Counted from the stretch's first letter, positions 29,989 through 45,084 are shown. The stretch is 64,000 bases of DNA from Hyphomicrobiales bacterium (GCA_017305665.1 JAFKKH010000012.1:187617-251616); one strand, 5' to 3'. Numbers and translations are program-made. Notes: generated from the letters alone by a model not told the origin.

Positions 29989-30909
29989 TTACACCGGATC
30001 CCAATTGAAAATGTCAGCGGAGCGATCGAGCTTGTAGAACGATCCCTTCAGCGCCGGCATGCCGTGCTCGGCAATGCTCTGCGGCGTCCAGCCCTCGCTT
30101 CGCTGCACCGAGCGGATCGGACGCGATTGGCCCATCAGGAAGATTTCGTTCATGCGCACGGCAAAGATCTGTCCGGTCACGTCCTTTGCGGCGTCGCCGA
30201 GCAGATAGGCGCAGATCGGCGCGATCTTGTCGGCGGTCATGCGCTGCATGCGTTCGACGCGCGCCTTTTCTTCGGGCGTCTCGGTCGGAATGGTGCCGAT
30301 CAGGCGGCTCCACGCGAATGGCGAGATGCAGTTCGAACGCACGTTGAAGCGGTTCATATCGAGCGCAATCGACTTCGACAGGCCGACGATGCCGAGCTTG
30401 GCGGCGGCGTAATTGGCCTGGCCGAAATTGCCGATCAGGCCCGAGGTCGAGGTGAAGTGCACGAACGAGCCGCTTTCCTGCTCGCGGAACAGGCGCGCCG
30501 CGGCGTGCGAGACGTAGAAAGAGCCCATCAGGTGCACCTTGATGACGGACTCGAACGCGTCGATGCTCATGCGGTGGAAGATCGCATCGCGCAGGATGCC
30601 GGCGTTGTTCACGACACCGTCGAGCTTGCCGTAGGTGTCGACGGCCTGCTTGACGATCTTGCTGGCGGGAATCGCTTCCGCCACGGTCTCGAAGTTGGCG
30701 ACGGCAGTGCCGCCGCGCTTCTTGATCTCTTCGACGACCTGTTCGGCAGGCGCCGCATCGTTGCCGGCGCCGTCGGCCGCACCGCCTGGATCGTTGACGA
30801 CGACCCTTGCACCTTCCGCCGCGCACAGCAGCGCGATCTCGCGGCCGATGCCGCGGCCCGCGCCGGTGACGATGACGACTTTTCCGTCGAGTGATTTTGC
30901 GTTTGCCAT
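29989..30909 (-). CDS. SDR (3-hydroxyacyl-CoA dehydrogenase / MFE-2 N-domain-like)
   Basis: TGAGRGIG, VVVND, NNAGILRD, GNFGQANYAAAK; start MANAKS at 30909. Confidence 0.9.
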   Translation of the reverse strand: MANAKSLDGKVVIVTGAGRGIGREIALLCAAEGARVVVNDPGGAADGAGNDAAPAEQVVEEIKKRGGTAVANFETVAEAIPASKIVKQAVDTYGKLDGVVNNAGILRDAIFHRMSIDAFESVIKVHLMGSFYVSHAAARLFREQESGSFVHFTSTSGLIGNFGQANYAAAKLGIVGLSKSIALDMNRFNVRSNCISPFAWSRLIGTIPTETPEEKARVERMQRMTADKIAPICAYLLGDAAKDVTGQIFAVRMNEIFLMGQSRPIRSVQRSEGWTPQSIAEHGMPALKGSFYKLDRSADIFNWDPV

Positions 30910-30928
30910 GATGCTCTCGTGGGGTTCG

Positions 30929-32068
30929 TTATTTTTCGTTCGTGAAGATGATGGTGCCTGATGCCGCGAACATGCCGCCGACGCCGTGGCAGACCGAAAT
31001 TTTCGCGTCCTTGACCTGTGCCGGCGCGATGCCGCGCATCTGCCGCACGCTCTCCTGCAGCGCATACATGCCGTACATGCCCGAATGCATGTAGCTCAGG
31101 CCGCCGCCGTTGGTGTTGAGCGGCAGCTTGCCGCCCGGCCGCGTGTTGCCGTCGGCGATGAACTTGCCGGTTTCCTCATACGGCATGAAGCCGAGGTCGC
31201 CGAGCCCGAACAGCGGCAGGTGCGCGAAGGCGTCGTAGATCATCAGATGGTCGACGTCCTTGTGGGTGATGCCGGCCTCCTTGAAGGCGAGGGGGCCGGC
31301 GACCTTGAAGGCGCGCGAGGAATTGAAGGTCTCCATTTGGCTGACCATCGGCGTTTCCACGCTTTCGCCGGTGCCGAGGATATAGACCGGCTTCTTCGGA
31401 AAATCCTTGGCACGGTCGGCGGAGGTGAGGATCAGCGCGCCGCCGCCGTCGGTGACGAGGCAGCACTGCAGCAGGCGGAACGGGTAGGCGATCATGCGCG
31501 AGTTCAGCACGTCCTCGACCGTGATCGGATCCTTCATGGTCGCGCGCGGGTTCTTCGCGGCCCACTCGCGCTGCACCACCGCGACCGAGGCGATCTGCTC
31601 GTGGGTGATGCCGTAGGTCTTCATGAAGCGCAGCACCGGAATTGGGAACATGCTCGGCGGGCCGTAGACGCCGAACGGCGCCTCGAACTGGCCGTTCAGG
31701 CTGTCCGGCGGCGTGAAGCGCGGCTGTTTGCCGATCATCGACTTGCCGCTCTCGGCATGGGTGATGAGCACGGTCTTGCACAGCCCGGCCTCGATCGCAG
31801 CCGCCGCATGGCGGACGTGCAGCATGAACGAGCAGCCGCCCACCGAGGTGCCGTCGACCCAGGTCGGGGTGATGCCGAGATAGTGCGCGATCTGCTGCGG
31901 CGTCTCGACCGCGGTGGCGATGCCGTCGATATCCGACAGCTTCAGCCCGGCGTCGGCGATGGCATTGAGCGCCGCATCCGCATGCAACTGGATCTGCGAC
32001 ATGTCGGGGATGACGCCGAGCTTGGTGGTTTCGGCTGCGCCGACGACAGCGACTTGATTCCTGCGCAT
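30929..32068 (-). CDS. SCP2-type thiolase-like protein
   Basis: VGGCS, CCLVTDGGGA, IYDAF, NTNGGGLSYMHSG, HGVGG; start MRRNQV at 32068. Confidence 0.88.
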   Translation of the reverse strand: MRRNQVAVVGAAETTKLGVIPDMSQIQLHADAALNAIADAGLKLSDIDGIATAVETPQQIAHYLGITPTWVDGTSVGGCSFMLHVRHAAAAIEAGLCKTVLITHAESGKSMIGKQPRFTPPDSLNGQFEAPFGVYGPPSMFPIPVLRFMKTYGITHEQIASVAVVQREWAAKNPRATMKDPITVEDVLNSRMIAYPFRLLQCCLVTDGGGALILTSADRAKDFPKKPVYILGTGESVETPMVSQMETFNSSRAFKVAGPLAFKEAGITHKDVDHLMIYDAFAHLPLFGLGDLGFMPYEETGKFIADGNTRPGGKLPLNTNGGGLSYMHSGMYGMYALQESVRQMRGIAPAQVKDAKISVCHGVGGMFAASGTIIFTNEK

Positions 32069-32070
32069 AT

Positions 32071-32146
32071 TCAGTGTCCCGAATCCGAAGTTCGCTTGAT
32101 CTTGCAGCATCCTCCGGAGCGAACTTCGGATTCGAAAGGACACTGA
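32071..32146. repeat. Hairpin element, family D (AGTG...CACT termini)
   Basis: TCAGTGTCC-C-GAATCCGAAGTTCGCT / AGCGAACTTCGGATTC-GAAA-GGACACTGA long inverted repeat with a 3-nt AAA bulge. Confidence 0.85.
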
Positions 32147-32160
32147 GCTAAATATAACTG

Positions 32161-32236
32161 TAGTGTGGCTTTGGTTCAGGCGTCCGCAAACAGAATTCGC
32201 TTCAAGGACGGTGCGGACGCTCGAACCGCCACACTA
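32161..32236. repeat. Hairpin element, family D, inverted relative to 32071-32146
   Basis: TAGTGTGGC-TTT-GGTTCAGGCGTCCGCA / TGCGGACGCTCGAACC-GCCACACTA; abuts the DUF35 stop codon. Confidence 0.85.
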
Positions 32237-32650
32237 TTACCCCTTCGCCGGACGGAACATGGGGAGGGTGATCTTGTCGTCGAGCTTCTCGAACTTGACC
32301 TCGAGTTTCATGTCGAGTTCGAGCGCCTCCGGCGTTTGCGGGCAATCGACGATGTTGCTCATCATGCGCGGGCCTTCGTCGAGTTCGACCACTGCGATGG
32401 CATAGGGTGGCGTGAAGCCCGGCGCCGCGGGGCGATGATTGATGACGTAGCTGTAGAGCTTGCCCTTGCCCGACGATTTGAAGATGCTGACCTTGCGCGA
32501 CGCGCATTTCGGGCAGAACGGACGCGGCGGAAAGTAGACATGGTCGCAGGCGTCGCAACGCTGCAGGCGCAACTCGCCGGCCTGCGTACCGTCCCAGAAA
32601 TGTTGTGTCTCGGGCGTCGGTTTGGGGCGTGCGCGCTGGGCTTCGGCCAT
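32237..32650 (-). CDS. Zn-ribbon/OB-fold (DUF35) protein, thiolase partner
   Basis: CDAC...CPKC Zn ribbon, GKLYSY, PYAIAVVELDEGPRMMSNIV. Confidence 0.92.
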   Translation of the reverse strand: MAEAQRARPKPTPETQHFWDGTQAGELRLQRCDACDHVYFPPRPFCPKCASRKVSIFKSSGKGKLYSYVINHRPAAPGFTPPYAIAVVELDEGPRMMSNIVDCPQTPEALELDMKLEVKFEKLDDKITLPMFRPAKG

Positions 32651-32800
32651 AACGATGTCTCTCCCTGAATGTGGGCGCTGGTGGCCCGGGCGTTGCAATC
32701 TTGATGCGCCATTGGCCGGGAAGCGTCAACGGCCGCAGCGCATGGCGGTATTCCGTCTCGCGCAAAACGGATCGGTGACCGCGCGGACAAGATCGGAAAT

Positions 32801-33727
32801 TCAGATGTGGGCGTTGTCGCGCTCGATGGTATTCAGGCGCTCTGCGTGATCGCTGCGCAAATAGTCGGCGAACGCCTTGCTGAGCGGCGGCAGCGTGCGA
32901 TCTTTTTTCTTGATAAGGGCGATCTGGCGCGAAAAGTGCGGATCGCTGATGCGTCGCGACCGCAGGCTCGGAATCGCCGCCACTTCGCGGCAGGAAGCCG
33001 GCAGGATGGTGATGCCGAGACCGGCGCGCACCATGCCTAGCGCCGTCATGATGTAAGTCACTTCGGCAACCGGCTTCGGCATCAGCTTGGCATTGCTGAA
33101 CGCGCTGTCGGTGACTGAACGGACGCTGGTGTGCGTGTTCATCATGATGAGCGGAAATTGCGCCAGGCGCTCGGCGTTGATGCGGGAGAATTTTCCGATC
33201 GGATGTCCGTCGGGGTACACCACGTTCATCTCGTCGCCGGAGCGGAACAAGACATCGATATCCGGGAAATCGACTGCGCCGCCGGTCAGGCCGAGATCGA
33301 CATCGTCGGAACGGACCAGGTCGATCAGGGAGCCCGCGACGCAGTCGCTCACGGCGAAGGAGGCGCCCGGATTTTGCCTCCGGAATTGCCGGATCGCGTC
33401 GGGTAGCAGGCTGGCTGCGAGCGAGGGAAGCACGGAAATCCGGACCACGCCGTGCAGCGCCGTCGAGGTATTTCGCGCGCTGTGCAGCATGGAATCGAGA
33501 TCCTGCAACGTGCGCTCGAAGGTGGGGAGCAGGTCGCGACCCATCCGTGTGAGATTTACAGCGCGGGGATTGCGGTCGAACAGCTTGAGCCCGAGCGTTT
33601 CTTCCAGATGCTTGATGTGGACGGTGAGCGTCGGCTGGGAGACGTGAAGGAATTCGGCGGCGCGGGTGAAGTTACCGAGACGCGCAACGGCAATAAAGGA
33701 ACGCATCTGCCGCAAATTGACATCCAT
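32801..33727 (-). CDS. LysR-family regulator, divergent from the ABC operon
   Basis: MDVNLRQMRSFIAVARLGNFTRAAEFLHVSQPTLT HTH. Confidence 0.93.
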   Translation of the reverse strand: MDVNLRQMRSFIAVARLGNFTRAAEFLHVSQPTLTVHIKHLEETLGLKLFDRNPRAVNLTRMGRDLLPTFERTLQDLDSMLHSARNTSTALHGVVRISVLPSLAASLLPDAIRQFRRQNPGASFAVSDCVAGSLIDLVRSDDVDLGLTGGAVDFPDIDVLFRSGDEMNVVYPDGHPIGKFSRINAERLAQFPLIMMNTHTSVRSVTDSAFSNAKLMPKPVAEVTYIMTALGMVRAGLGITILPASCREVAAIPSLRSRRISDPHFSRQIALIKKKDRTLPPLSKAFADYLRSDHAERLNTIERDNAHI

Positions 33728-33763
33728 AGGGAAATCGTATTGCTGAGATTGAAATATTTCAAT
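33726..33763. promoter_or_regulatory. LysR-type binding sites in the divergent promoter
   Basis: ATA-N9-TAT at 33726-33740 and the perfect 16-bp palindrome ATTGAAATATTTCAAT at 33748-33763 containing T-N11-A. Confidence 0.55.
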
Positions 33764-33846
33764 AGCCGTATAGTTGATTTGCTCCCCCAGACGCGCCAAA
33801 AGGGGACCGCAGAACGACAACACCCCCAAATCGGAGAGGAAACGCG

Positions 33847-35094
33847 ATGATAAGAAAAGCATCGATCGCGCTTGCGGCGGCTTTGACACTCGGAACGCAG
33901 GCGTTTGCCGCTGATGCACCGGCGGAAATCAAGATCGGTACGCTGTACGCCTCGTCGGGCCGCTATGCATCGATCTCGATGCCGGTTCACAGCGCATTGA
34001 AGCTCTGGGTCGAGCAGAAGAACGCCGAAGGCGGCGTCTACGTGAAGGCCTTCGACAAGAAGATCCCGATCAAGCTCGTGGCCTATGATGACCAGAGCAA
34101 CACGGCGACGGCCGCGACGCTCTACAATCAGCTCGTCACTCAGGACAAGGTGGACATGCTGGTGGCGGATTCCGGCTCGGTGCTGACCGCGCCTGCCGTG
34201 ACCATCGCGCGCGACCACAAGATGTTCCTGTTCGACCAGACCGGAACCGGTGCGAGCTTCTTCTCCAAGGACAATCCCTACATCGCGCTGATGGCCGACC
34301 CGGTCTCGACGATCTGGCCGAAGCCGGTCGCGGACTTCATCACCCATGACGGGCCGGGCCTCGGCATCAAGAAGGTCGCGATCCTGTACTCGACCAACGA
34401 ATTCACGGGAACGCAGGCCAACGCGGTGCGCAAGTTCATCAAGGACTCGGGCGCGCCGATCGAGATCGTTTACGATCAGGGCATTCCGACCGAGACCACG
34501 AACTACACCGTCATCATCAACAACATCCTGGCCAAGGAGCCGGATGCGGTGATCCATCTCGGCTACGCGCCGAACGACATCGCGTTCCTGCGTAACGTCC
34601 AGGACGTCGGTGCCAAGTTCAAGATGCTGTTCTGCATCTATCCTGGCCTCGAGACCGAATTGCTCGAGAAGAACGTCGGCGCCAAGGGCCTGCAGCACGT
34701 CTTCACTTACGTTCCGCCGCAGGAGCTGGAATATCCGGTCAACTTCGGAATGAAGATGTCGGACTTCAAGAAGGCCTGGGACGCGAAGTACAAGGACGGC
34801 AAGATCGAGTTCGGCTTCAACTCGGTGGCCGGCTACACCACCGCGCTCGTCCTCGAGAAGACGCTGTCGGTTGCGACCAGCCTCGACCGGATGGAGCTGC
34901 GCAAGGCCGTGTTCAGCCTCTCCGGCAAACTCAAGACGCTGGACGGCACCTTCGCGCTCGACGAGATGGGCGGCCAGATCGGCGAACTGACGCCGCTCGG
35001 CCAGCTCGAGCTCAACGAGCACGGACACATCAAGTTCGTGTCGATCTATCCGCACGAGACGGCGACCGGCAAGCCGGTCTATCCGCGCCCGTGA
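33847..35094 (+). CDS. HAAT (branched-chain amino acid type) ABC substrate-binding protein
   Basis: Signal peptide ending AFA, EIKIG, YDDQS motifs of periplasmic binding protein type 1. Confidence 0.9.
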   Translation: MIRKASIALAAALTLGTQAFAADAPAEIKIGTLYASSGRYASISMPVHSALKLWVEQKNAEGGVYVKAFDKKIPIKLVAYDDQSNTATAATLYNQLVTQDKVDMLVADSGSVLTAPAVTIARDHKMFLFDQTGTGASFFSKDNPYIALMADPVSTIWPKPVADFITHDGPGLGIKKVAILYSTNEFTGTQANAVRKFIKDSGAPIEIVYDQGIPTETTNYTVIINNILAKEPDAVIHLGYAPNDIAFLRNVQDVGAKFKMLFCIYPGLETELLEKNVGAKGLQHVFTYVPPQELEYPVNFGMKMSDFKKAWDAKYKDGKIEFGFNSVAGYTTALVLEKTLSVATSLDRMELRKAVFSLSGKLKTLDGTFALDEMGGQIGELTPLGQLELNEHGHIKFVSIYPHETATGKPVYPRP

Positions 35095-35137
35095 TCGATA
35101 ACGTCCCCATGGTGGATCAGCATCGGAGTTCGCTCTG

Positions 35138-36058
35138 ATGCTGTATCCCTTGGTCGCCGGTGTCCTGTTCGGGCTTTACTTCAGCCTGGTCGGCATTGGC
35201 CTCAACCTCGTGTTCGGCGTCATGCGCATCGTCAACCTTGCGCATGGCGACTTCCTGATGCTGGGCGCGTTCGTCGCGTTCGGCATCTACACCGCTGCCG
35301 GCCTCGATCCGCTGGTCGGCATTCCCGTCGCATTCGCGCTGTTTTGTGTGGCGGGGCTTCTGCTCTACTGGGTTCTGGTGCCGCGGCTGCAGCGCGCCCG
35401 TGATCCGGAGATGCTGTCCTTCATCTTGTTCTTCGGCTTTTCCCAGGTGATCGAGGCGTTGACCACGATCGTCTTCGGCACCAGCGAACGTTCGATTCCG
35501 AGCCGCCAACTGGCGAGCTCGCTCGCGGGTATCCGCGCATCGCTGTTCGGCGGTGAGGCGACCAACGGCCCCTTCCGGATATTCGGTCTGTCGTTTCCGG
35601 CCTCGTGGGTGGTGGCGGCGACCGTGAGCGTCATCGCCATCATCTGCGTTTATCTTTATTTGTATCGCACCCGGCTCGGCACGCTGACGCGCGCGGTGAT
35701 GTCGCGCCGTGACGAGGCGGTGGCGACCGGCATCAACGTCGATCGCGTGTCTGCCGCGGCCTTTGGTATTGGTCTTGGCCTTGCCGCCGTCGCGGGCGTA
35801 TTCGCGCCCTTCATGTTCGGCTCGTTCACGCCGGCCTTCGGCATCGACGCAACGGTCACTTCGTTCGTGGTGGTGGTGCTGGGGTCGCTCGGCAATCCAC
35901 TCGGCACGGCGCTCGGCGGCGTCGTCTACGGCGTCTCCTACATGCTGGTGCAGACCTATCTCAGCTCGTGGGCCGACCTGCTGCCCTACGTGCTGCTGAT
36001 CGCGATCCTGCTGCTGCGGCCGAGCGGTCTGCTTGGAAGGAGGGTGCGCGTTGCCTGA
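35138..36058 (+). CDS. HAAT ABC permease (LivH-like)
   Basis: GLNLVFGVMRIVNLAHGDF; hydrophobic segments. Confidence 0.92.
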   Translation: MLYPLVAGVLFGLYFSLVGIGLNLVFGVMRIVNLAHGDFLMLGAFVAFGIYTAAGLDPLVGIPVAFALFCVAGLLLYWVLVPRLQRARDPEMLSFILFFGFSQVIEALTTIVFGTSERSIPSRQLASSLAGIRASLFGGEATNGPFRIFGLSFPASWVVAATVSVIAIICVYLYLYRTRLGTLTRAVMSRRDEAVATGINVDRVSAAAFGIGLGLAAVAGVFAPFMFGSFTPAFGIDATVTSFVVVVLGSLGNPLGTALGGVVYGVSYMLVQTYLSSWADLLPYVLLIAILLLRPSGLLGRRVRVA

Positions 36059-36971
36059 TACGTTGCGCCATTATCTCATCATCGCAGTGCCGTTGCTGAT
36101 CGTCATGGCCGTGCTGCCATCGGTCTACAGCAACCATCTGCTGCTGTTCAATTTCGTGATCTTCTTCATCCTGGCCCAGGGTGTGAACATCATCTACGGA
36201 TTCACCGGCTATCTGCCGTTCGGCTATGTCGGCTTCTTCGGTGCCGGAGCCTACGGCTTCGCCATCATGGTGATGCATCTGAACGCGCCGGCGCCGCTCG
36301 CGGTTCTGGTCGGCGGCGCCGTGGCGGTGGTGCTCGGATTGATCCTGACACCGCTATTGCGGCTGGCGGGTGCGTATTTCTCCATCGCCAATCTCGCCGC
36401 GGCGCTCGCGGTGCTGCACCTCGTCGCCAATCCGGCGCTGGAACAGATCACCAAGGGGCCTTACGGCGTCGCGCTCAACGGCACCTTCAATCCGACGATG
36501 GCTTATGCCGGCGGCATCCTGATCCTCGCGCTGACGCTCGGCATCGTGGTGTATCTGAAGAATTCCAGTTTCGGACTGGCGCTGCAGGCGGTGCGTGAGG
36601 ATTCGTTCAGCGCATCGATGTCCGGCGTCAATGTGGTGAAGATGCGAACGGTCGCGTGGCTGGCCTCGGCGCTGGTTGCCGGCCTCGCGGGCGGCGTGTT
36701 CGCCTGGTACGTGTCGGTATTCTATCCGGACAACGTGTTCAGTGCCGACTTCAGCATCTTCGCCATCGTGTTCGCGCTGTTCGGCGGCGTCGCCACCATT
36801 TCGGGCCCGCTGATCGGCGTCATCATTCTCTATGGCATCTACAATCTGATCGGCTTCACGACGCCGCAATATTTCCAGTTGATCTACGGTCTCCTGATCA
36901 TGGCGCTGGTGCTGTTCCTTCCGGCGGGACTGGTCTCGCTTGCGACACGGCGGGGGTGGTATGTCCCCTGA
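36051..36971 (+). CDS. HAAT ABC permease (LivM-like; TTG start)
   Basis: GFTGYLPFGYVGFFG, LAGAYFSIA, FGLALQAVRED. Confidence 0.9.
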   Translation: MPDTLRHYLIIAVPLLIVMAVLPSVYSNHLLLFNFVIFFILAQGVNIIYGFTGYLPFGYVGFFGAGAYGFAIMVMHLNAPAPLAVLVGGAVAVVLGLILTPLLRLAGAYFSIANLAAALAVLHLVANPALEQITKGPYGVALNGTFNPTMAYAGGILILALTLGIVVYLKNSSFGLALQAVREDSFSASMSGVNVVKMRTVAWLASALVAGLAGGVFAWYVSVFYPDNVFSADFSIFAIVFALFGGVATISGPLIGVIILYGIYNLIGFTTPQYFQLIYGLLIMALVLFLPAGLVSLATRRGWYVP

Positions 36972-37692
36972 ACCGGAGCGCCTTCTCGAAGTCAGCGGTG
37001 TAGTCAAGCGCTTCGGCGGATTCCATGCGCTCGACGGCCTGAGCTTTCACGTCTCGCCGGGTGAAATCCTGGGTCTCGTCGGTCCCAACGGATCGGGCAA
37101 GACCACGGCGATCAACGTCATCTCCGGCCTCTATGCGCCTGATGCCGGCAGCGTCAGTTTCCTGCGGTCGCCGGTCGGCGGCATGGCATCGCACAAGCTG
37201 GTGCACCTCGGCATCAACCGCACGTTCCAGGTGCCGAAGCCGTTCATGTCGCTCACGGTCAAGCAGAACGTCGAGGTCGCGCACACCTATGGCAACGCCA
37301 GCGACAAGGCCCTGCCGATGGCCGATCTACTGGAGCGTTTCCATCTGGCTGAAGTCGCCAACCGCCCGGCAAGCGATCTGACCAACGTGCAGCAGAAGAC
37401 GCTCGATCTGGTGCGCGCACTTGCGACGCAGCCGAAATTGTTGCTGCTCGACGAACTGGCCGCGGGCCTCAATCCGACCGAGCTCGACTGGATCGCCGGC
37501 GAGATCAAGACGCTGGCGCAAAGCGGCCTTGCCATCATCGTGGTCGAGCATCTGATGGGATTCATCGAGCAGATCACCGACCGCGTCATCGTCATGAATG
37601 CCGGCAAGGAAATCTTCGAAGGTACGCTCGCGGTAGCTGTAACCGTGCCCGAGGTGGTCGAAGTGTTTTTGGGAGGCGAGCATGCCGCCTGA
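36961..37692 (+). CDS. HAAT ABC ATP-binding protein (LivG-like)
   Basis: GPNGSGKTT Walker A, LLLLDE Walker B, VEH switch. Confidence 0.93.
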   Translation: MSPEPERLLEVSGVVKRFGGFHALDGLSFHVSPGEILGLVGPNGSGKTTAINVISGLYAPDAGSVSFLRSPVGGMASHKLVHLGINRTFQVPKPFMSLTVKQNVEVAHTYGNASDKALPMADLLERFHLAEVANRPASDLTNVQQKTLDLVRALATQPKLLLLDELAAGLNPTELDWIAGEIKTLAQSGLAIIVVEHLMGFIEQITDRVIVMNAGKEIFEGTLAVAVTVPEVVEVFLGGEHAA

Positions 37693-38401
37693 GACATCAT
37701 CGCTGCTCCACGTCACGGGCGTCGACGCAGGCTACGGCAGCATGCAGGTGCTGTGGGGCGTCGATCTCGACGTGCGTCCCGGCGAGACGGTGCTGCTGCT
37801 CGGTGCCAACGGGGCCGGCAAGACCACCTTCCTGAAGACACTGGTCGGATTGATCGAGACGCGGCAGGGGCACATCACGCTTGGTGGCAAGGACGTCACG
37901 CGGATGCGTTCCAGCGACCGCATGCGACTCGGCATGACCTACATGTCCGAACTCGCGGTGTTCCCCGATCTGTCCATCGAGGAGAACCTGCGCGTCGGCG
38001 CACAGGCGCTCGGGCACGCCAACCCCAATGCGCGCGCGGAAGAGCTCTACGGCATCTTCCCGGTGCTGCGCGACAAGCGGCGCAATCCGGCATCGAGTCT
38101 CTCGGGCGGCCAGCGCAAGATGCTCGGCATCGCCAAAGCTCTCGCGGCGGAGCCGAAATTGCTTGTCATGGACGAGCCATCGGCCGGCCTGTCGCCGCTG
38201 TTCGTCAAGGAAGTCATCCGTGTTCTCACCGATCTGCGCGGACACGGCCTCGCGCTTTTGATCGCCGAGCAGAACATCGGCTTCCTCGAAGTCGCGACTC
38301 GTGTGTTCGTGCTGGAGGGCGGACGCATCCGCTTCTCGGGCACTGTCGCAGAGATGACCGATAACGAGGCGCTGCGGCGCGCCTATTTCGGATTGAAGTA
38401 G
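37682..38401 (+). CDS. HAAT ABC ATP-binding protein (LivF-like)
   Basis: GANGAGKTT, LSGGQ, VMDEPS, AEQN. Confidence 0.93.
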   Translation: MPPETSSLLHVTGVDAGYGSMQVLWGVDLDVRPGETVLLLGANGAGKTTFLKTLVGLIETRQGHITLGGKDVTRMRSSDRMRLGMTYMSELAVFPDLSIEENLRVGAQALGHANPNARAEELYGIFPVLRDKRRNPASSLSGGQRKMLGIAKALAAEPKLLVMDEPSAGLSPLFVKEVIRVLTDLRGHGLALLIAEQNIGFLEVATRVFVLEGGRIRFSGTVAEMTDNEALRRAYFGLK

Positions 38402-38436
38402 CCCTTCGTCGCCAAAAAACAAAAAGGATATCTCCG

Positions 38437-39831
38437 ATGACCGCTTCGAACGATTTAACGTCGCTTACGGTTGCGGAATTGGCGGCAATGCTTGCCGCGC
38501 GCCGCGTTTCAGCGGTGGAGATTACCGATGCGTGTCTCGATCGTATCGCGACGTATAACGATGCGCTGCATGCTTTTATCGACCTTTATCCGGAAGAAGC
38601 CCGCGCGGCGGCCAAGGCCGCGGACCTTGCGCGCGGGGCCGGCTATGCGCTCAGCCCGTTGCACGGCATTCCGTTCGGGCTGAAAGACCTCGTCGATATC
38701 GAGGGCAAGGTGACGACCGGCGGCTCGAAAGTATGGGCCAAGCGGATTTCACCCTCGACCGGTTCGCTGGTTCGCCGGCTGGTGGGATCGGGCATGATTG
38801 TCGCCGGCAAGACCCACACCGTCGAATTCGCTTTCGGCGCGTGGGGAACCAATCAGCACATGGGCGCGCCGCGCAATCCATGGGACATGCGCGAGCCGCG
38901 CACGCCGGGCGGTTCGAGCAGCGGGTCCGGTGTGGCGGTGGCGGCACGGATGGTGCCGTGGGCGGTGGGCACCGATACCGGCGGGTCAGTCCGTAGCCCC
39001 TCGGCGTTGTGTGGACTCACCGGTCTCAAGACTACGGTCGGACAGATCGCGACCGACGGTATCCTGCCGCTGAGTACGACGCTGGACACGCCGGGACCCC
39101 TAGCACGCAGCGCGACCGATGCCGCTATTCTGTTCGAGGCCATGCGGGGCGGCAGCCTCGCTTCCATGAATGCGATCCTCTCCGGTCCCGCGCCGCGCGA
39201 CGTCAAAGGCCTGCGGTTGGCGCGCCTGCCCGATCATGAGCGCGATGTCGTCGAACCCGCGGTGCTGTCTGCCTACGATCAATCGCTGGCGCAGCTCGCC
39301 GATATGGGCGCTGAGATCGTGTCGGTCACACTGCCGTTCCGCTTCGCCGACTTCAAAATCCCGTCGGGCAATTTGATTGCGGCTGAAGGCTATTCGTTCG
39401 TCAAGGAGATCATCGACGATCCCGCCGCGCCCGTCGACGAGGATGTGCGCGCGCGTTTTGCGGTCGCACGTACGATGTCAGTGACGGACTATCTGCGCAT
39501 GATGCGCGAGCGCGAGGAGATCACCGCAAAGACCACCGCCGCGCTGGCGGGCGTTGACGCGCTGCTGACACCGACCACGCCGATGACGGCGCATCCGCTG
39601 GCTACCGCCGAGAGGGAAAAGATCATCCCCTCGCACTTTACGCGCATGGCCAATTTCTTCGGACGTTGCGCGTTGGCGGTGCCGAACGGTTTCTCGCCAA
39701 CGGGCCTGCCGACATCGCTGCAGATCATCTGCGCGCCGAACGATGAATCGATGGCGCTGCGCATCGGGCGAAACTATCAGGCCATCACCGATTGGCATCG
39801 GCGTGCGCCGGCGTTGGAAGGCGCCGCCTAG
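38437..39831 (+). CDS. Amidase-signature family amidase
   Basis: GLKDL (Lys), GGSSSGS (cis-Ser), GTDTGGSVR (nucleophile Ser). Confidence 0.93.
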   Translation: MTASNDLTSLTVAELAAMLAARRVSAVEITDACLDRIATYNDALHAFIDLYPEEARAAAKAADLARGAGYALSPLHGIPFGLKDLVDIEGKVTTGGSKVWAKRISPSTGSLVRRLVGSGMIVAGKTHTVEFAFGAWGTNQHMGAPRNPWDMREPRTPGGSSSGSGVAVAARMVPWAVGTDTGGSVRSPSALCGLTGLKTTVGQIATDGILPLSTTLDTPGPLARSATDAAILFEAMRGGSLASMNAILSGPAPRDVKGLRLARLPDHERDVVEPAVLSAYDQSLAQLADMGAEIVSVTLPFRFADFKIPSGNLIAAEGYSFVKEIIDDPAAPVDEDVRARFAVARTMSVTDYLRMMREREEITAKTTAALAGVDALLTPTTPMTAHPLATAEREKIIPSHFTRMANFFGRCALAVPNGFSPTGLPTSLQIICAPNDESMALRIGRNYQAITDWHRRAPALEGAA

Positions 39832-41175
39832 ATGACGCGCACCATCAGGATCGGCTCCGGCGCAGGTTATTCCGGGGATCGCATCGAGCCGGCGCTGGAA
39901 CTCGCCGAAAAGGGTGGCATCCAGTATCTCGTGTTCGAATGTCTCGGCGAGCGCACCGTCGCGCTGGCGCAGCAGGCGCGCATGAAGGACCCTCAGAGCG
40001 GCTACGATCCGCTGCTGGAGGAGCGGATGCGTGCGGTACTGCCGACCTGCGCCGCCAAGGGCATCAAGATCGTCACCAATATGGGTGCGGCCAATCCCGA
40101 AGCGGCCGCGCGAAGAACCGCCGAGATCGCAAAATCCCTCGGCTTGCGCGGGCTCAAGGTCGCAGCCGTGGTGGGCGACGATGTGCTCGATGCGTGCAAG
40201 GCGAGCAATCTTCCTATCATGGAGTTCGAGGGCACGATCGGCGACTTTGGCAACCGTCTGCTGTCGGCCAATGCCTATCTCGGTGCTGCGCCGATGGCCG
40301 AGGCGCTGAAGGGCGGCGCGGATGTGGTCATCACCGGTCGCGCGTCTGATCCTGCCTTGTTTCTGGCGCCCATGATCGATGCGTTCGGCTGGGCGATGGA
40401 CGATTGGGATCTGCTCGGCAAGGGCACGGTGGCCGGTCATCTGCTCGAATGTGCGGGCCAGATCACTGGAGGCTACTTCGCCGACCCCGGCTTCAAGGAT
40501 GTCGAGGGGCTGGCGCGTCTCGGCTTTCCGATCGGGGAAGTCGGCGAGGACGGATCGCTGGTCATCACAAAAGTCGAGGGCTCGGGTGGTGCCGTCACGG
40601 CGCGAACCTGCAAGGAGCAATTGCTCTATGAGGTTCACGATCCCAGGCGCTATCTGCAGCCCGACGTCGTCGCGGATTTCTCCGAAGTCACCGTGGAGGA
40701 GATCGGTCCCGACCGCGTTCGCGTGCAGGGCGGACGTGGCACGCGCCGGCCCGACACGCTGAAGATATCGGTCGGCTATATCGACAGCTATATCGGCGAG
40801 GGCCAGATCTCCTATGCCGGTCCGGGCGCGGCGGCCCGGGGACGGCTGGCGCTTGATATCGTGCGCGAGCGTCTGCGGCTCACGGGCGTGCAGACGAGCG
40901 AACTGCGCTTCGATCTGGTTGGAGTCGATTCCTTGCACGGTCCTCAACTCGCAGCGCAGGGCAGCGAGCCTTACGAGGTCCGTGTTCGTGTCGTCGGCCG
41001 CACCGACAACCTTCGTGAGGCGGTCCGCATCGGCAACGAGGTCGAGACGCTTTACACTAACGGTCCGGCAGGCGGCGGCGGCGCGACAAAATCCGCGCGG
41101 GATGTGGTCGCGGTGGCATCGGTGCTGTTGCCGCGCGAATTGGCCAAGCCGGCTGTCCGTTTCGTGGAGGCATGA
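39832..41175 (+). CDS. AtuA-family (DUF1446) protein, N-terminal-domain form
   Basis: IRIGSGAGYSGDR, ECLGERT, TNMGAANP, ITGRASDPAL, GHLLECAGQITGG, YLQPDV. Confidence 0.88.
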   Translation: MTRTIRIGSGAGYSGDRIEPALELAEKGGIQYLVFECLGERTVALAQQARMKDPQSGYDPLLEERMRAVLPTCAAKGIKIVTNMGAANPEAAARRTAEIAKSLGLRGLKVAAVVGDDVLDACKASNLPIMEFEGTIGDFGNRLLSANAYLGAAPMAEALKGGADVVITGRASDPALFLAPMIDAFGWAMDDWDLLGKGTVAGHLLECAGQITGGYFADPGFKDVEGLARLGFPIGEVGEDGSLVITKVEGSGGAVTARTCKEQLLYEVHDPRRYLQPDVVADFSEVTVEEIGPDRVRVQGGRGTRRPDTLKISVGYIDSYIGEGQISYAGPGAAARGRLALDIVRERLRLTGVQTSELRFDLVGVDSLHGPQLAAQGSEPYEVRVRVVGRTDNLREAVRIGNEVETLYTNGPAGGGGATKSARDVVAVASVLLPRELAKPAVRFVEA

Positions 41176-41176
41176 G

Positions 41177-41503
41177 GTGAAACTGCGCGAGATCGCTCAT
41201 TCCCGTACCGGCGACAAGGGCAACACGTCGAACATCTCCGTCATCGCCTATGACGCGCGGCATTATCCGTTGCTTGTGGCTCAGGTGACGAGCGAGCGCG
41301 TCAGGGCGCATTTTGCCGGTGTGGTCGAGGGCGAAGTGACCCGCTTTGAGCTGCCGAACATCGCGGCGCTGAATTTCGTCATGACCGGTGCCCTTGGTGG
41401 CGGCGTCACGCGCTCGCTGGCGCTGGATGCGCATGGAAAATCGCTCAGCTCGGCGCTGCTCGATCTGGAAATTGACGACCGTTTGGGCGATACCTTGTCC
41501 TGA
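41177..41503 (+). CDS. Small AtuA-related protein (separate C-terminal-type domain; GTG start)
   Basis: KLREIAHSRTGDKGNTSNI...LNFV...GGG...DAHGKS; starts 1 nt after the AtuA stop; the ORF track merged it into a 229-aa ORF. Confidence 0.85.
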   Translation: MKLREIAHSRTGDKGNTSNISVIAYDARHYPLLVAQVTSERVRAHFAGVVEGEVTRFELPNIAALNFVMTGALGGGVTRSLALDAHGKSLSSALLDLEIDDRLGDTLS

Positions 41504-41544: not shown

Positions 41545-42894
41545 ATGGCTCAACATCCGACCCTTGCAACGCTCGCCGCTGATCTGGCCAATGGTCGCAC
41601 GACCGCGCGCAAGCTCGTTGACGAATGCCTTGCCAGGATCGCAGACAAGGCGGGCGAGGGCGCCCGCGTCTTCATCCAGGTCGATGCCGAGGGTGCCGCC
41701 TCCGCAGCCGATGCGATGGACAAGTTGCGCAAGGCCAACGCCGCGCCGTCGCCTTTTGCGGGCATTCCCATTTCGATCAAGGATCTGTTCGACATCAAGG
41801 GACAGGTATCGCGCGCCGGCTCCCGCGCGCTCGACGATGCGCCGTCGGCAGCGGAGGACGCGCCTGTGGTGGCACGGTTGCGTCGCGCCGGCTTTGTGGT
41901 GGTCGGCCGCACCAACATGACCGAGTTCGCTTATTCGGGTCTCGGCATCAATCCGCATTACGGCACGCCAAAGAACCGCTGGCATCGTGAGGTCGGCCAT
42001 GTGCCCGGCGGATCGTCGTCGGGCGCCGCGGTGTCGATCACCGACGGCATGGCCTATGCCGCGCTTGGCACCGATACCGGCGGCTCGTGCCGGATTCCGG
42101 CGGCCTATAACGGGATCGTCGGCTATAAGCCGACCGCGCGCCGCATTCCGCTCGACGGCGGCGTGCCGCTGTCGTTCACGCTGGACAGCTATGGGCCGAT
42201 CGCCCGCTCGGTCGGCTGCTGCGCCGTGATCGATGCGGTGCTGGCGGACGAGCCGGTCGCAGCGGTCACGCCGCGGCCCGTGAAGGGGATGCGGCTCGCG
42301 GTGCCGACCACAGTGATGCTGGATGACCTCGATCCTGCGGTCGCGCAGGCCTTCGATCGCGCCCTTGATGTGCTCTCGCGCGCCGGCGCCATCATCGAGC
42401 GCATCGCTGTTCCCGAATTTGCCGAGGCCGGCACGCTGAACGCGAACGGCGGTTTCTCCGCGGCGGAAAGCTGGGCCTGGCATCGCGCGCTGATCGCGAA
42501 GAAAGCCGATGTCTACGATCCCCGTGTCGTCAGCCGCATTCGCCGTGGCGAAGCGCTCAGCGCCGCCGATTATGTCGATCTGCTCGCCATGCGGCGCGCC
42601 ATGATCGATGGCTTCGAGCGCCGCGTTACACCGTATGACGCGCTGATCGCGCCGACCATCGCCATCACGCCGCCGGTGATCGCCGACCTCGCCGACGATG
42701 CCGCCTATACCAAGGCGAACCTGCTCTCGTTGCGCAACTGCACCCTGATCAACACCATCGACGGCTGCGCGATCTCGTTGCCGTGTCATCGCGAGGGCGA
42801 TGCACCGGTCGGGCTGATGCTGGCGGCGGCAGGCGGCTCGGATCGGCGAATCTTCGAACTGGCAGCGGCCATCGAACCGCTGGTCCGCGGGTGA
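41545..42894 (+). CDS. Amidase-signature family amidase (second)
   Basis: SIKDLF, GGSSSG, GTDTGGSCR. Confidence 0.92.
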   Translation: MAQHPTLATLAADLANGRTTARKLVDECLARIADKAGEGARVFIQVDAEGAASAADAMDKLRKANAAPSPFAGIPISIKDLFDIKGQVSRAGSRALDDAPSAAEDAPVVARLRRAGFVVVGRTNMTEFAYSGLGINPHYGTPKNRWHREVGHVPGGSSSGAAVSITDGMAYAALGTDTGGSCRIPAAYNGIVGYKPTARRIPLDGGVPLSFTLDSYGPIARSVGCCAVIDAVLADEPVAAVTPRPVKGMRLAVPTTVMLDDLDPAVAQAFDRALDVLSRAGAIIERIAVPEFAEAGTLNANGGFSAAESWAWHRALIAKKADVYDPRVVSRIRRGEALSAADYVDLLAMRRAMIDGFERRVTPYDALIAPTIAITPPVIADLADDAAYTKANLLSLRNCTLINTIDGCAISLPCHREGDAPVGLMLAAAGGSDRRIFELAAAIEPLVRG

Positions 42895-42898
42895 AATC

Positions 42899-43591
42899 AT
42901 GAGCGCATGCGAACTCGCACTCACCCTTGAATCCAAAAGCGGTCGGTCGCCGCTCACACTGACCATCACCCAGGCCGTGATCGCGGGCTGGACGGGGCGC
43001 GATCCCGTGGCACGCGACAAACATATCGCCGAACTTGAAGCGATCGGCATTGCGCGCCCGGCCTCCACGCCGATCTACTATCGCGTCGCCGCGCGGCGGC
43101 TGACCACCGCCACGAGCATCGAGGTGAGCGGCGGCGACTCCAGCGGCGAGGTCGAGTTCGTTCTGCTCGCCTCCGGCGGCAAGACCTATGTCGCTGTCGG
43201 CTCCGACCATACCGACCGCAAGGTCGAAACCTATGGCGTCACCGTCTCCAAGCAGATGTGCGACAAGCCGATCGCGCCGGTGGTGTGGGCGCTCGATGAC
43301 GTGATCGGCCACTGGGACCAGATTGTGCTGCGGTCGTTCGCCACTATCGGCGGCGCGCGCGTGCTCTATCAGGAAGGCAAGCTCGACGGCATGTTGCCGG
43401 TTGCCGATCTCATCGCGCGCGGGTTCGGCGGGTCGGCGCTGCCGGACGGCTGCGCCATGTTCGGCGGTACCTTCGCGGCGAAGGGCGGCATCCGCCCGGC
43501 CAGCCGGTTCGATTTTGAAATCGAGGATCCCGTGCTGAAACGCACCATCCGCCACGGTTATGATGTGGTCGAACTGCCGGTGCTGGGCTGA
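42899..43591 (+). CDS. DUF2848 protein (FAH-like fold)
   Basis: AGWTGRD, SGEVE, GSDHTDR, SKQMCDKP, MFGGT conserved blocks. Confidence 0.82.
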   Translation: MSACELALTLESKSGRSPLTLTITQAVIAGWTGRDPVARDKHIAELEAIGIARPASTPIYYRVAARRLTTATSIEVSGGDSSGEVEFVLLASGGKTYVAVGSDHTDRKVETYGVTVSKQMCDKPIAPVVWALDDVIGHWDQIVLRSFATIGGARVLYQEGKLDGMLPVADLIARGFGGSALPDGCAMFGGTFAAKGGIRPASRFDFEIEDPVLKRTIRHGYDVVELPVLG

Positions 43592-43660: not shown

Positions 43661-44410
43661 ATGACATCAGCCGTGAAGACCATCGTCCGTTCCGCGCCTC
43701 CCGCCAATATGGCGGCGCGCGTTGCCGCGCTCGACTGGCAGCACATCGCTGACGATCTCGACGCGCAGGGGTGTGCGGTTCTTCCAAGTCTGCTGTCCGC
43801 GGGCGAATGCGAGGCGCTGGCGGCGCTCTACGATACAGACGAAAAATTCCGCAGCCGCATCGTGATGGGCCGTCACGGTTTTGGCCGTGGCGAATACAAG
43901 TACTTCGCCTATCCGTTGCCTGAGCCGATCGCATCGCTGCGTCCGGCGCTGTATCCGCCGCTGAGCAGAATTGCGAACCGCTGGAATGAGGCGATGGGCA
44001 TCGCGATCCGCTATCCCGATGATCACGCCGCGTTCTTGAAACGCTGTCATGACGCCGGCCAGACCCGGCCGACGCCGCTGCTGTTGCGCTACGAGGCCGG
44101 CGATTACAACTGTCTGCATCAGGATCTCTATGGTGAGCACGTGTTCCCGTTGCAGGTGGCGATCCTGCTGTCGCAGCCGGGCGACGAATTCACCGGCGGC
44201 GAATTCGTGCTGACCGAGCAGCGACCGCGCATGCAGTCGCGTGCCGAGGTGGTGCCGCTGCGGCAGGGCGATGCGGTCGCGTTTGCCGTGCATCACCGGC
44301 CGGTGCAAGGTACGCGCGGTGTCTACCGCGTCAATTTGCGCCACGGCGTTAGCCGCCTGCGCTCCGGCCGCCGCCACACAGCCGGCGTGATCTTCCACGA
44401 TGCGACCTGA
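43661..44410 (+). CDS. 2OG-Fe(II) oxygenase (DUF2086 type)
   Basis: GRGEYKYF, LHQD (HxD), GGEFVL, RHGVS (distal His) and Arg for 2-oxoglutarate binding. Confidence 0.85.
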   Translation: MTSAVKTIVRSAPPANMAARVAALDWQHIADDLDAQGCAVLPSLLSAGECEALAALYDTDEKFRSRIVMGRHGFGRGEYKYFAYPLPEPIASLRPALYPPLSRIANRWNEAMGIAIRYPDDHAAFLKRCHDAGQTRPTPLLLRYEAGDYNCLHQDLYGEHVFPLQVAILLSQPGDEFTGGEFVLTEQRPRMQSRAEVVPLRQGDAVAFAVHHRPVQGTRGVYRVNLRHGVSRLRSGRRHTAGVIFHDAT

Positions 44411-44433
44411 GAGACTGACGTGCAGAGACTTGC

Positions 44434-45084
44434 GTGACCGCGGATTTGTTCGACGCCGTTCCCGATGCGCCGTCGCAGGAAGCGATCGGCGAGGGCGCCG
44501 TGCTGCTGCGCGGTTTCGCGCGCGATAACGAGAGCGATCTGATCGCGGATTTGCGCGCGGTGATCGCGCAAGCTCCGTTCCGCCACATGGTCACGCCCGG
44601 CGGGCATACCATGTCGGTGGCGATGACCAATTGCGGCGCGGTCGGCTGGGTCACGGACCAGAGCGGCTATCGCTATTCACCGACCGACCCCAGGACGAAC
44701 CAGCCGTGGCCGGCAATGCCGCGATCGTTTCATCAACTCGCGAAGTTGGCGGCGACGCGCGCTGGCTTTGCCGATTTCGTGCCCGATGCCTGCCTGATCA
44801 ACCGCTATACGCCCGGCGCGAAGATGTCGCTGCATCAGGACAAGGATGAGACCGATTTCGGCGCGCCGATCGTCTCGGTGTCATGGGGTTTGCCGGCGAC
44901 GTTTCTGTTCGGCGGATTGAAGCGCAGCGATCCGTCGCGCCGCCTTCGTCTCGCCCACGGTGATGTGGTGGTGTTGGGCGGGCCGTCGCGGCTCGCCTAT
45001 CACGGCATCGCGCCCCTGGCAGACGGTGAGCACCCCGTGCTCAAGCGTCAGCGGATCAACCTGACATTCCGGAAGGCCCGCTGA
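44434..45084 (+). CDS. alkB: DNA oxidative demethylase AlkB
   Basis: TPGGHTMSVAMTNCG, GYRY, CLINRY, LHQDKDE, HGI, RINLTFR. Confidence 0.95.
   Translation: MTADLFDAVPDAPSQEAIGEGAVLLRGFARDNESDLIADLRAVIAQAPFRHMVTPGGHTMSVAMTNCGAVGWVTDQSGYRYSPTDPRTNQPWPAMPRSFHQLAKLAATRAGFADFVPDACLINRYTPGAKMSLHQDKDETDFGAPIVSVSWGLPATFLFGGLKRSDPSRRLRLAHGDVVVLGGPSRLAYHGIAPLADGEHPVLKRQRINLTFRKAR

Follow-up and report, generated by a model that had tools for sequence, protein, structure and literature searches.

A candidate two-subunit AtuA-family lyase joined to an ABC importer and amidases in a Hyphomicrobiales bacterium

In a stretch of 64,000 nucleotides from a Hyphomicrobiales bacterium, a soil-type relative of Bradyrhizobium/Nitrobacter (GCA_017305665.1 JAFKKH010000012.1:187617-251616), which as a whole is called the window here, we analyzed a locus at positions 32801-41503 that had been reported to hold nine genes, namely, a divergent LysR-type regulator, a five-gene ATP-binding cassette (ABC) importer, an amidase (amidase-1), an AtuA-family protein, and a small partner protein, the last two together being referred to as AtuAB. 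A scan of open reading frames (ORFs) combined with Pfam showed that all nine genes are real and lie at the reported positions. As judged from sequence comparison, the conserved core of the locus is the LysR with its predicted operator, AtuA, and the small subunit. The single most likely reading of the arrangement found in the window, which we hold tentatively and at a little less than an even chance, is that an amide is imported and hydrolyzed and that the freed acid is then cleaved by AtuAB acting as an acid lyase. We infer that AtuAB is a lyase, which acid it acts on, and that the amidase supplies this acid.

The large subunit (39832-41175, plus strand, 447 amino acids [aa]) matched PF07287 with an E value of 4e-160 over model positions 1-436 of 437, and the small subunit (41177-41503, plus strand, 108 aa, GTG start) matched the ferredoxin-like family PF23544 (AtuA_ferredoxin, E 1e-37), so that both family models support the assignment. 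The ferredoxin-like domain is fused to AtuA N-terminally in the family members P0132 and P0164 and C-terminally in P0181, P0243, P0246, and P0233. Neighborhoods were compared in 80 loci from different species with AtuA 51-87% identical to that of the window; their ORFs were clustered and the recurrent clusters annotated. Genes were called by a codon log-odds caller, which misses the small subunit under a longer overlapping frame, and hence the small subunit was scored by tblastn. The small gene directly follows AtuA in 79 of the 80 loci, and in the remaining one the contig ends inside AtuA. Given the fusions in both orders and this adjacency, AtuA and the small protein form one enzyme, and the split AtuA proposed in the sequence-only reading is upheld.

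The AlphaFold2 (AF2) model of the large subunit (predicted local distance difference test [pLDDT] 94) has a CmlA-like fold. Its sole significant match in the PDB by Foldseek was 9evf_A (E 1e-25, TM 0.70/0.69, 18% identity), and no other Foldseek match had an E value below 1e-3. The title of 9evf is 'Citramalate lyase - ADP - pyruvate complex', and 9ERQ/9EVF are annotated as 'AtuA family protein / citramalate lyase subunit A (cmlA)'. The sequence relation is remote (phmmer E 0.004; E 6e-11 with a profile, for a partial-length alignment) and falls short of orthology; the large subunit is a remote relative of CmlA and not its orthologue. Motifs common to CmlA were present in the profile alignment, namely, GRxxDP (R170/D173), LEC (E206/C207), and YExxDP (Y266/E267/D270), and across 30 aligned diverse family members five of these seven named residues were invariant and Y266 was nearly so. 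To our knowledge, CmlAB is the only AtuA-family member with a demonstrated reaction, and with this solved enzyme at hand the earlier statement that the AtuA reaction is unassigned is outdated. Like the pair studied here, CmlAB (Raoultella planticola, Enterobacteria; 9ERQ/9EVF) is a two-gene enzyme with an AtuA-family large subunit, and fold and motifs are common to both. The Raoultella Cml, encoded as cmlAB, cleaves citramalate directly to pyruvate and acetate (bioRxiv 10.64898/2026.01.16.699985), and the terpene-pathway AtuA has tentatively been assigned the role of a lyase that frees acetate from a 3-hydroxy-3-alkylglutaryl thioester (PMC4847356). The theme common to the two would be the release of acetate from a tertiary beta-hydroxy acid. 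From the modeled fold, AtuAB probably cleaves a C-C bond as a CmlAB-type lyase and, by analogy with CmlAB, may act on a free acid. Unlike CmlAB, the locus in the window has a different transporter, a different regulator, and amidases, and its substrate is presumably different. A DUF1446 gene has been reported to follow mal in methylaspartate clusters; no methylaspartate context of the kind seen with CmlAB (glutamate mutase, methylaspartase, or mesaconase) was found among the Pfam-annotated genes of the window.

Two other views of AtuAB chemistry were weighed against simple cleavage, and both are less likely than either the chain from amide to lyase or the positional association that is taken up below. 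AtuAB might carry out a nucleotide-dependent step, such as ATP-dependent activation, phosphorylation-coupled cleavage, or a ligase/carboxylase-like reaction, with the amidases still upstream. This is unlikely: although the relative 9EVF was crystallized with ADP and pyruvate, and although chemistry may have diverged at 18% identity in a family as large as this one (5888 cluster representatives at 50% identity), the sole member used biochemically gives pyruvate and acetate directly, the motifs common to CmlA are conserved, and minimal operons of a transporter and AtuAB fit a single cleavage. It is very improbable that this AtuA is an ordinary component of acyclic terpene (Atu) degradation with the atu genes elsewhere in the genome, a view to which only membership in the same Pfam family points. 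The AtuA of Pseudomonas and Thauera, whose tentative reaction likewise releases acetate from a tertiary 3-hydroxy acid derivative, is one fused chain of about 600 aa (615 aa in Thauera) as opposed to the split architecture here, its substrate is a CoA thioester, and it is accompanied by atuBCDEFGH under AtuR, none of which was seen here. The absence of atu carboxylase and beta-oxidation genes that had been noticed for the unit extends to the whole window, where neither a carboxyltransferase, a biotin carboxylase, a hydratase, nor an acyl-CoA dehydrogenase of the atu type was found among the scanned ORFs (most of the larger ones). Furthermore, AtuA orthologues stand behind CitMHS, TctC, or TRAP carriers in at least 51 species without atu genes.

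The LysR-type regulator is at 32801-33727 on the minus strand (PF00126 and PF03466). It is best read from the ATG at 33727, which gives 308 aa; the open frame extends to 33919, and the 308-aa form is preferred because the helix-turn-helix (HTH) begins at its residue 5 (HTH residues 5-64). A divergent LysR with clear sites had been noticed earlier, and in the intergenic region between LysR and the binding protein, 20 nt from the LysR ATG, we found a perfect 16-bp palindrome, ATTGAAATATTTCAAT (33748-33763, no strand), as the predicted operator. In 23 other species, a LysR with 41-63% identity to this regulator is divergent to a CitMHS-AtuAB or AtuAB-TctC operon; of the 26 loci whose LysR is at least 46% identical, 24 have a related motif at a distance of exactly 19 nt from the LysR start. 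The motif at this shared offset is ATNNAMNNWWTTYAAT; the operator consensus is GATCAAATCATTTCAATTG and the version in the window is GATTGAAATATTTCAATAG. The degenerate operator motif occurs once in the window as against 0.02 occurrences expected, and it was not found in any locus that lacks a LysR. Searched for with up to 3 mismatches in 1.75 Mb of locus sequence, the consensus is confined to these LysR-adjacent places. Because the loci that yielded the pattern were also those used to count it, only the lack of matches at other places and in the remainder of the window is independent evidence. By these comparisons the LysR and the predicted operator appear orthologous to those of the carrier-AtuAB modules and to have been placed here before the ABC genes. 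Since they sit before the ABC genes and not before AtuA, the whole set would be under an AtuAB-type regulator in the lineage of the window. This placement is the strongest argument that the importer and amidase-1 may be co-expressed with AtuAB in this genome.

Outside this lineage, AtuA orthologues are 51-75% identical and the small subunits 48-76% identical. A CitMHS carrier is directly upstream of AtuA in 39 loci, TctC or TAXI-TRAP is in that place in others, and many operons consist solely of LysR and, divergent from it, carrier, AtuA, and small subunit. The LysR/CitMHS-AtuA-small subunit modules of Burkholderia, Paraburkholderia, Caballeronia, Rhodoplanes, B. cytisi, and others are like the locus in the window in having an orthologous AtuA and small subunit, a divergent LysR, and the same operator offset, whereas the locus in the window has a five-gene HAAT importer as carrier, amidase-1 before AtuA, and amidase-2 and DUF2848 after the small subunit. 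Thus, the amide importer that had been proposed as the partner of AtuAB is not the partner in the wider orthologue set, where a carboxylate carrier takes this place. In the AtuA tree, all AtuAs from the chromosomal slot described below form one clade (100/100) that is nested in a CitMHS-dominated radiation, and the CitMHS context reaches the deepest branches. The AtuAB clade spans Proteobacteria, Acidobacteria, Firmicutes, Bacteroidota, and one haloarchaeon. The minimal carrier-AtuAB operons imply that one enzyme seems enough to channel the imported acid into central metabolism, and as a consequence the substrate would be of a class of organic acids whose conversion to central metabolites takes a single enzyme.

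Other genes recur beside AtuAB outside the lineage. Genes resembling 3-hydroxybutyrate (3HB)-oligomer hydrolase (PF10605) are directly after the small subunit in L022 (10771-12771) and L064 (11622-13793) and nearby in L077 (13405-15348); those directly behind AtuAB belong to B. cytisi and Chelativorans, and the Chelativorans copy is split or frameshifted. An Abhydrolase_10 gene of about 700 aa adjoins AtuAB in L054 (11641-13749), L059, L061, and L063, and in L069 it is upstream on the opposite strand within about 3 kb. The loci in which it comes after the small subunit are from Acidobacteria and sphingomonads, and by eye the N-terminus of the protein is signal-peptide-like. There is an esterase behind AtuAB in L046. 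CoA-transferase A/B genes directly adjoin AtuAB on its downstream side in two loci, L011 and L071, and are separated from it by about 3.4 kb in L063, also downstream; L057 has an ACS-like ligase near AtuAB, and L065 and L066 have SDR (short-chain dehydrogenase/reductase) genes. That hydrolases have been joined to AtuAB on several independent occasions is in keeping with an acid that is found in conjugated form. The earlier proposal of hydrolysis followed by an AtuA step on the freed acid stays plausible, other lineages having esterases directly behind AtuAB. The ketone-body flavor of these neighbors makes 3-hydroxy-3-methylglutarate, which would give acetoacetate and acetate, a reasonable lead. 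In its most specific form the proposal would be that the AtuAB clade is a lyase that works without CoA on free 3-hydroxy-3-methylglutarate or on a similar tertiary hydroxy-acid, whose amide conjugates are imported, deconjugated by amidases, and cleaved, while ester conjugates are used through in-operon esterases elsewhere; the Bradyrhizobium/Nitrobacter-type locus would in that case stand for a catabolic route not described before. As a whole this is rather doubtful.

The transport genes of the locus, all on the plus strand, are a standard HAAT (TC 3.A.1.4) set that consists of a HAAT-family periplasmic binding protein (33847-35094, 415 aa; PF13458, Peripla_BP_6, E 8e-46), two permeases with PF02653 (BPD_transp_2), and two ATPases with PF00005. 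Permease 1 (35138-36058) is LivH/UrtB-like and permease 2 (36033-36971) is LivM/UrtC-like; the start codon of the latter is uncertain and its relatives have 306 aa (gene calls, L081-L093). ATPase 1 (36940-37692) is LivG/UrtD-like, with NCBIfam matches under cutoff, and ATPase 2 (37682-38401) is LivF/UrtE-like. None of the importer proteins reached a cutoff when compared to the NCBIfam Liv or Urt equivalog models. The binding protein is 84-100% identical across many Bradyrhizobium species, and its nearest PDB relatives match with E 1e-10 only, from which no ligand can be deduced.

Amidase-1 (38437-39831, plus strand, 464 aa) belongs to the amidase-signature family (PF01425, E 2e-89) and is lineage-specific. 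Its triad motifs are intact, namely, K83, GGSSSGS at residue 158 (S159/S160), and GGSVRSPS with S183. It is like malonamidase E2 (MAE2) and the half-amidases of Bradyrhizobium in its Lys/cis-Ser/Ser amidase-signature fold, in being cytoplasmic, and in coming from the same bacterial group, but it is only distantly related to MAE2 (E 1e-24). Since amidase-1 is under every cutoff of the NCBIfam amidase models, its substrate is not transferable from a known enzyme. The PDB relatives GatA, 6C62 (deposited as biuret hydrolase), and allophanate hydrolase were considered for its specificity and set aside, all of them being distant. Amidase-1 orthologues with at least 66% identity are always between the ABC genes and AtuA wherever the context was read, and relatives of 54-57% identity are in unrelated contexts.

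From the binding protein onward, the genes share one strand and are closely spaced, with the divergent LysR in front of them. The TAG of amidase-1 directly abuts the ATG of AtuA, and the GTG of the small subunit is 1 nt past the TGA of AtuA. ORFs and Pfam here agree with the sequence-only reading, which had listed five ABC genes, an amidase, a 447-aa AtuA right after the amidase stop, and a 108-aa partner 1 nt on. That reading also took the unit to be self-contained, and on the right side it is not, because amidase-2 (41545-42894, plus strand, 449 aa; PRK07056 subfamily, NF005460, 717 bits vs a cutoff of 447) starts 41 nt past the small subunit and a DUF2848 protein with an FAH-like fold (42899-43591, plus strand, 230 aa; PF11010) starts 4 nt after amidase-2. 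No terminator-like sites were found between the small subunit, amidase-2, and DUF2848, the scan yielding no more sites than shuffled sequence. From the spacing and the absence of such sites we infer that the locus is co-transcribed, and the apparent operon would run on past 41503 into amidase-2 and DUF2848.

In amidase-2, the KD lysine motif (K79) is present, and the regular expression for the usual GGSSxGS motif gave no match. Amidase-2 is present in every close-clade locus whose sequence extends that far, including those without AtuAB, and with DUF2848 it is the most constant part of this chromosomal slot. The two genes form a conserved pair, at 41545-43591 in the window, 14610-16638 in L086, and 14618-16646 in L087, and in B. 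guangzhouense and Bradyrhizobium sp. 6(2017) the pair directly follows the same HAAT ABC genes without AtuAB. The AF2 model of DUF2848 (pLDDT 77) matched Cg1458 (4dbf, E 2e-6), which we take to be an oxaloacetate decarboxylase, and KdaD (2q18) by Foldseek. On the basis of this model, amidase-2 and DUF2848 may form an uncharacterized route from an amide to an oxo-acid. Our literature search on DUF4387 and DUF2848 returned nothing.

The slot that holds these genes in close relatives is bounded on the left by SDR, thiolase-like, and DUF35 genes and on the right by oxygenase genes. In the window the left flank (29989-32698, minus strand) encodes an SDR, an SCP-x-type thiolase-like protein (Thiolase_C_1), and a DUF35/ChsH2 OB-fold protein, a trio kept left of the slot in all close relatives whatever the state of the slot. 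On the right, a PF09859 'Oxygenase-NA' 2-oxoglutarate (2OG) oxygenase and then an AlkB-like 2OG-Fe(II) oxygenase (43661-45084) come after DUF2848, the gaps being 69 and 23 nt. Most close relatives have this pair at the same place, and it may belong to the catabolic operon or consist of DNA-repair genes. Beyond the pair is a convergent hpa operon.

Five states of the slot were found. State A, for which Bradyrhizobium sp. SRL28 is an example, is AtuAB-amidase-2 without ABC genes, in eight species. State B is ABC-AtuAB-amidase-2 with the ABC genes abutting AtuAB and without amidase-1 (L007, L055, and apparently L073, an incomplete locus), and state C is ABC-amidase-1-AtuAB-amidase-2 (L003, L004, L081, and L082). 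State D, that of the window and L089-L093, has LysR in addition to the set of state C, and state E, in B. guangzhouense and Bradyrhizobium sp. 6(2017), is ABC-amidase-2-DUF2848 without AtuAB. The amidase-2 tree of 21 loci has two sub-clades. In the first, all nine loci have ABC, amidase-1, AtuAB, and amidase-2, with a patchy presence of LysR; the second, Bradyrhizobium proper, mixes states A, B, C, and E, with state E nested inside. Amidase-1 and the ABC genes accompany AtuAB in one Nitrobacteraceae/Xanthobacteraceae lineage only, with repeated gain and loss within it. The possibility raised at the outset that the genes are not co-conserved is thus realized in part: the pair of AtuA and small subunit is kept, but amidase-1 and the ABC genes are with AtuAB in this one lineage only. 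In L089 (11289-17335), a long-read metagenome-assembled genome, the permease, ATPase, amidase-1, and AtuA genes are fragmented; these breaks are probably assembly frameshifts and not pseudogenes, the near-identical L090 being intact.

Because the modules are separable, positional association is a serious rival, possible though less probable than the chain from amide to lyase. It would have an amide unit (ABC, amidase-2, and DUF2848), an acid-lyase unit (LysR and AtuAB), and an accessory amidase-1 as neighbors in one transcription unit without a shared pathway, no metabolite passing from amidase to AtuAB, and the free-acid substrate of AtuAB entering by this or another transporter. It accounts well for the two named Bradyrhizobium species of state E, for the eight species of state A, for the occurrence of every module combination with repeated gains and losses, and for AtuAB orthologues elsewhere being mostly without a hydrolase, but it does not lead one to expect that the AtuAB-cognate LysR and operator precede the ABC genes and not AtuA, that amidase-1 orthologues are found in no other context, that the amidase-1 stop abuts the AtuA start, or that the full set is in all nine loci of one sub-clade.

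The chain from amide to lyase, in contrast, would work as follows. LysR would bind the palindrome at 33748-33763, sense the acid of the pathway or a close derivative of it, and activate one long transcript that begins with the binding protein, covers amidase-1, AtuA, and the small subunit, and probably also takes in amidase-2 and DUF2848. The HAAT importer would take up a tertiary beta-hydroxy carboxylic acid in amide form, as a half-amide or as an N-acyl conjugate, and amidase-1, perhaps along with amidase-2, would free the acid. AtuAB would then split it into acetate and an oxo-acid, both of which would enter central metabolism; the oxo-acid would be acetoacetate if the acid is 3-hydroxy-3-methylglutarate and pyruvate if it is citramalate-like. 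In this lineage the ABC/amidase front end would have replaced the carboxylate carrier (CitMHS, TctC, or TAXI-TRAP) that would take up the free acid directly elsewhere.

Several observations weigh against this chain. Besides the separability seen in states A, B, and E, L003, which has amidase-1, and L055, which does not, are sisters (100/98), and the distribution among the 21 loci requires a minimum of 7 gains or losses. Among the 80 loci, no amidase was found next to AtuAB outside the lineage of the window. HAAT binding proteins can bind carboxylates too, so that the importer need not carry an amide. The large subunit is just 18% identical to CmlA, and the small subunit had no detectable sequence match among PDB chains, either as a single sequence or as a 21-sequence profile; in Pfam it matched PF23544 alone, even at E values up to 10, with no second family that would link it to CmlB. 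The 3-hydroxy-3-methylglutarate lead draws on a minority of loci, ketone-body genes being near about 7 of the 67 that lie outside the clade of the window. Finally, the sequencing runs that contain the sequence of the locus are DNA metagenomes only.

The clade usually forms a minimal unit of regulator, carrier, and enzyme, and so a single assay could annotate thousands of genes. The cognate LysR with its conserved palindrome is a ready-made biosensor or reporter for the acid, and the five slot states in close relatives are a natural deletion series. The natural amidase- or esterase-wired variants suggest that in nature the acid is encountered in conjugated form, and this narrows the search for the substrate.

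Two further observations concern the importer and the AtuA family. At 10001-14566 of L088 (Enhydrobacter aerosaccus), an 86%-identical binding protein and the matching four ABC genes are in a wholly different neighborhood with an acyl-CoA ligase, a major facilitator superfamily (MFS) protein, and an acyl-CoA dehydrogenase, which suggests horizontal transfer of the importer alone. The AtuA domain also occurs in two odd fusions, P0199 (818 aa) and P0269 (1257 aa), one of which has an N-terminal luciferase-like monooxygenase and the other a Ser/Thr protein kinase and TPR repeats.

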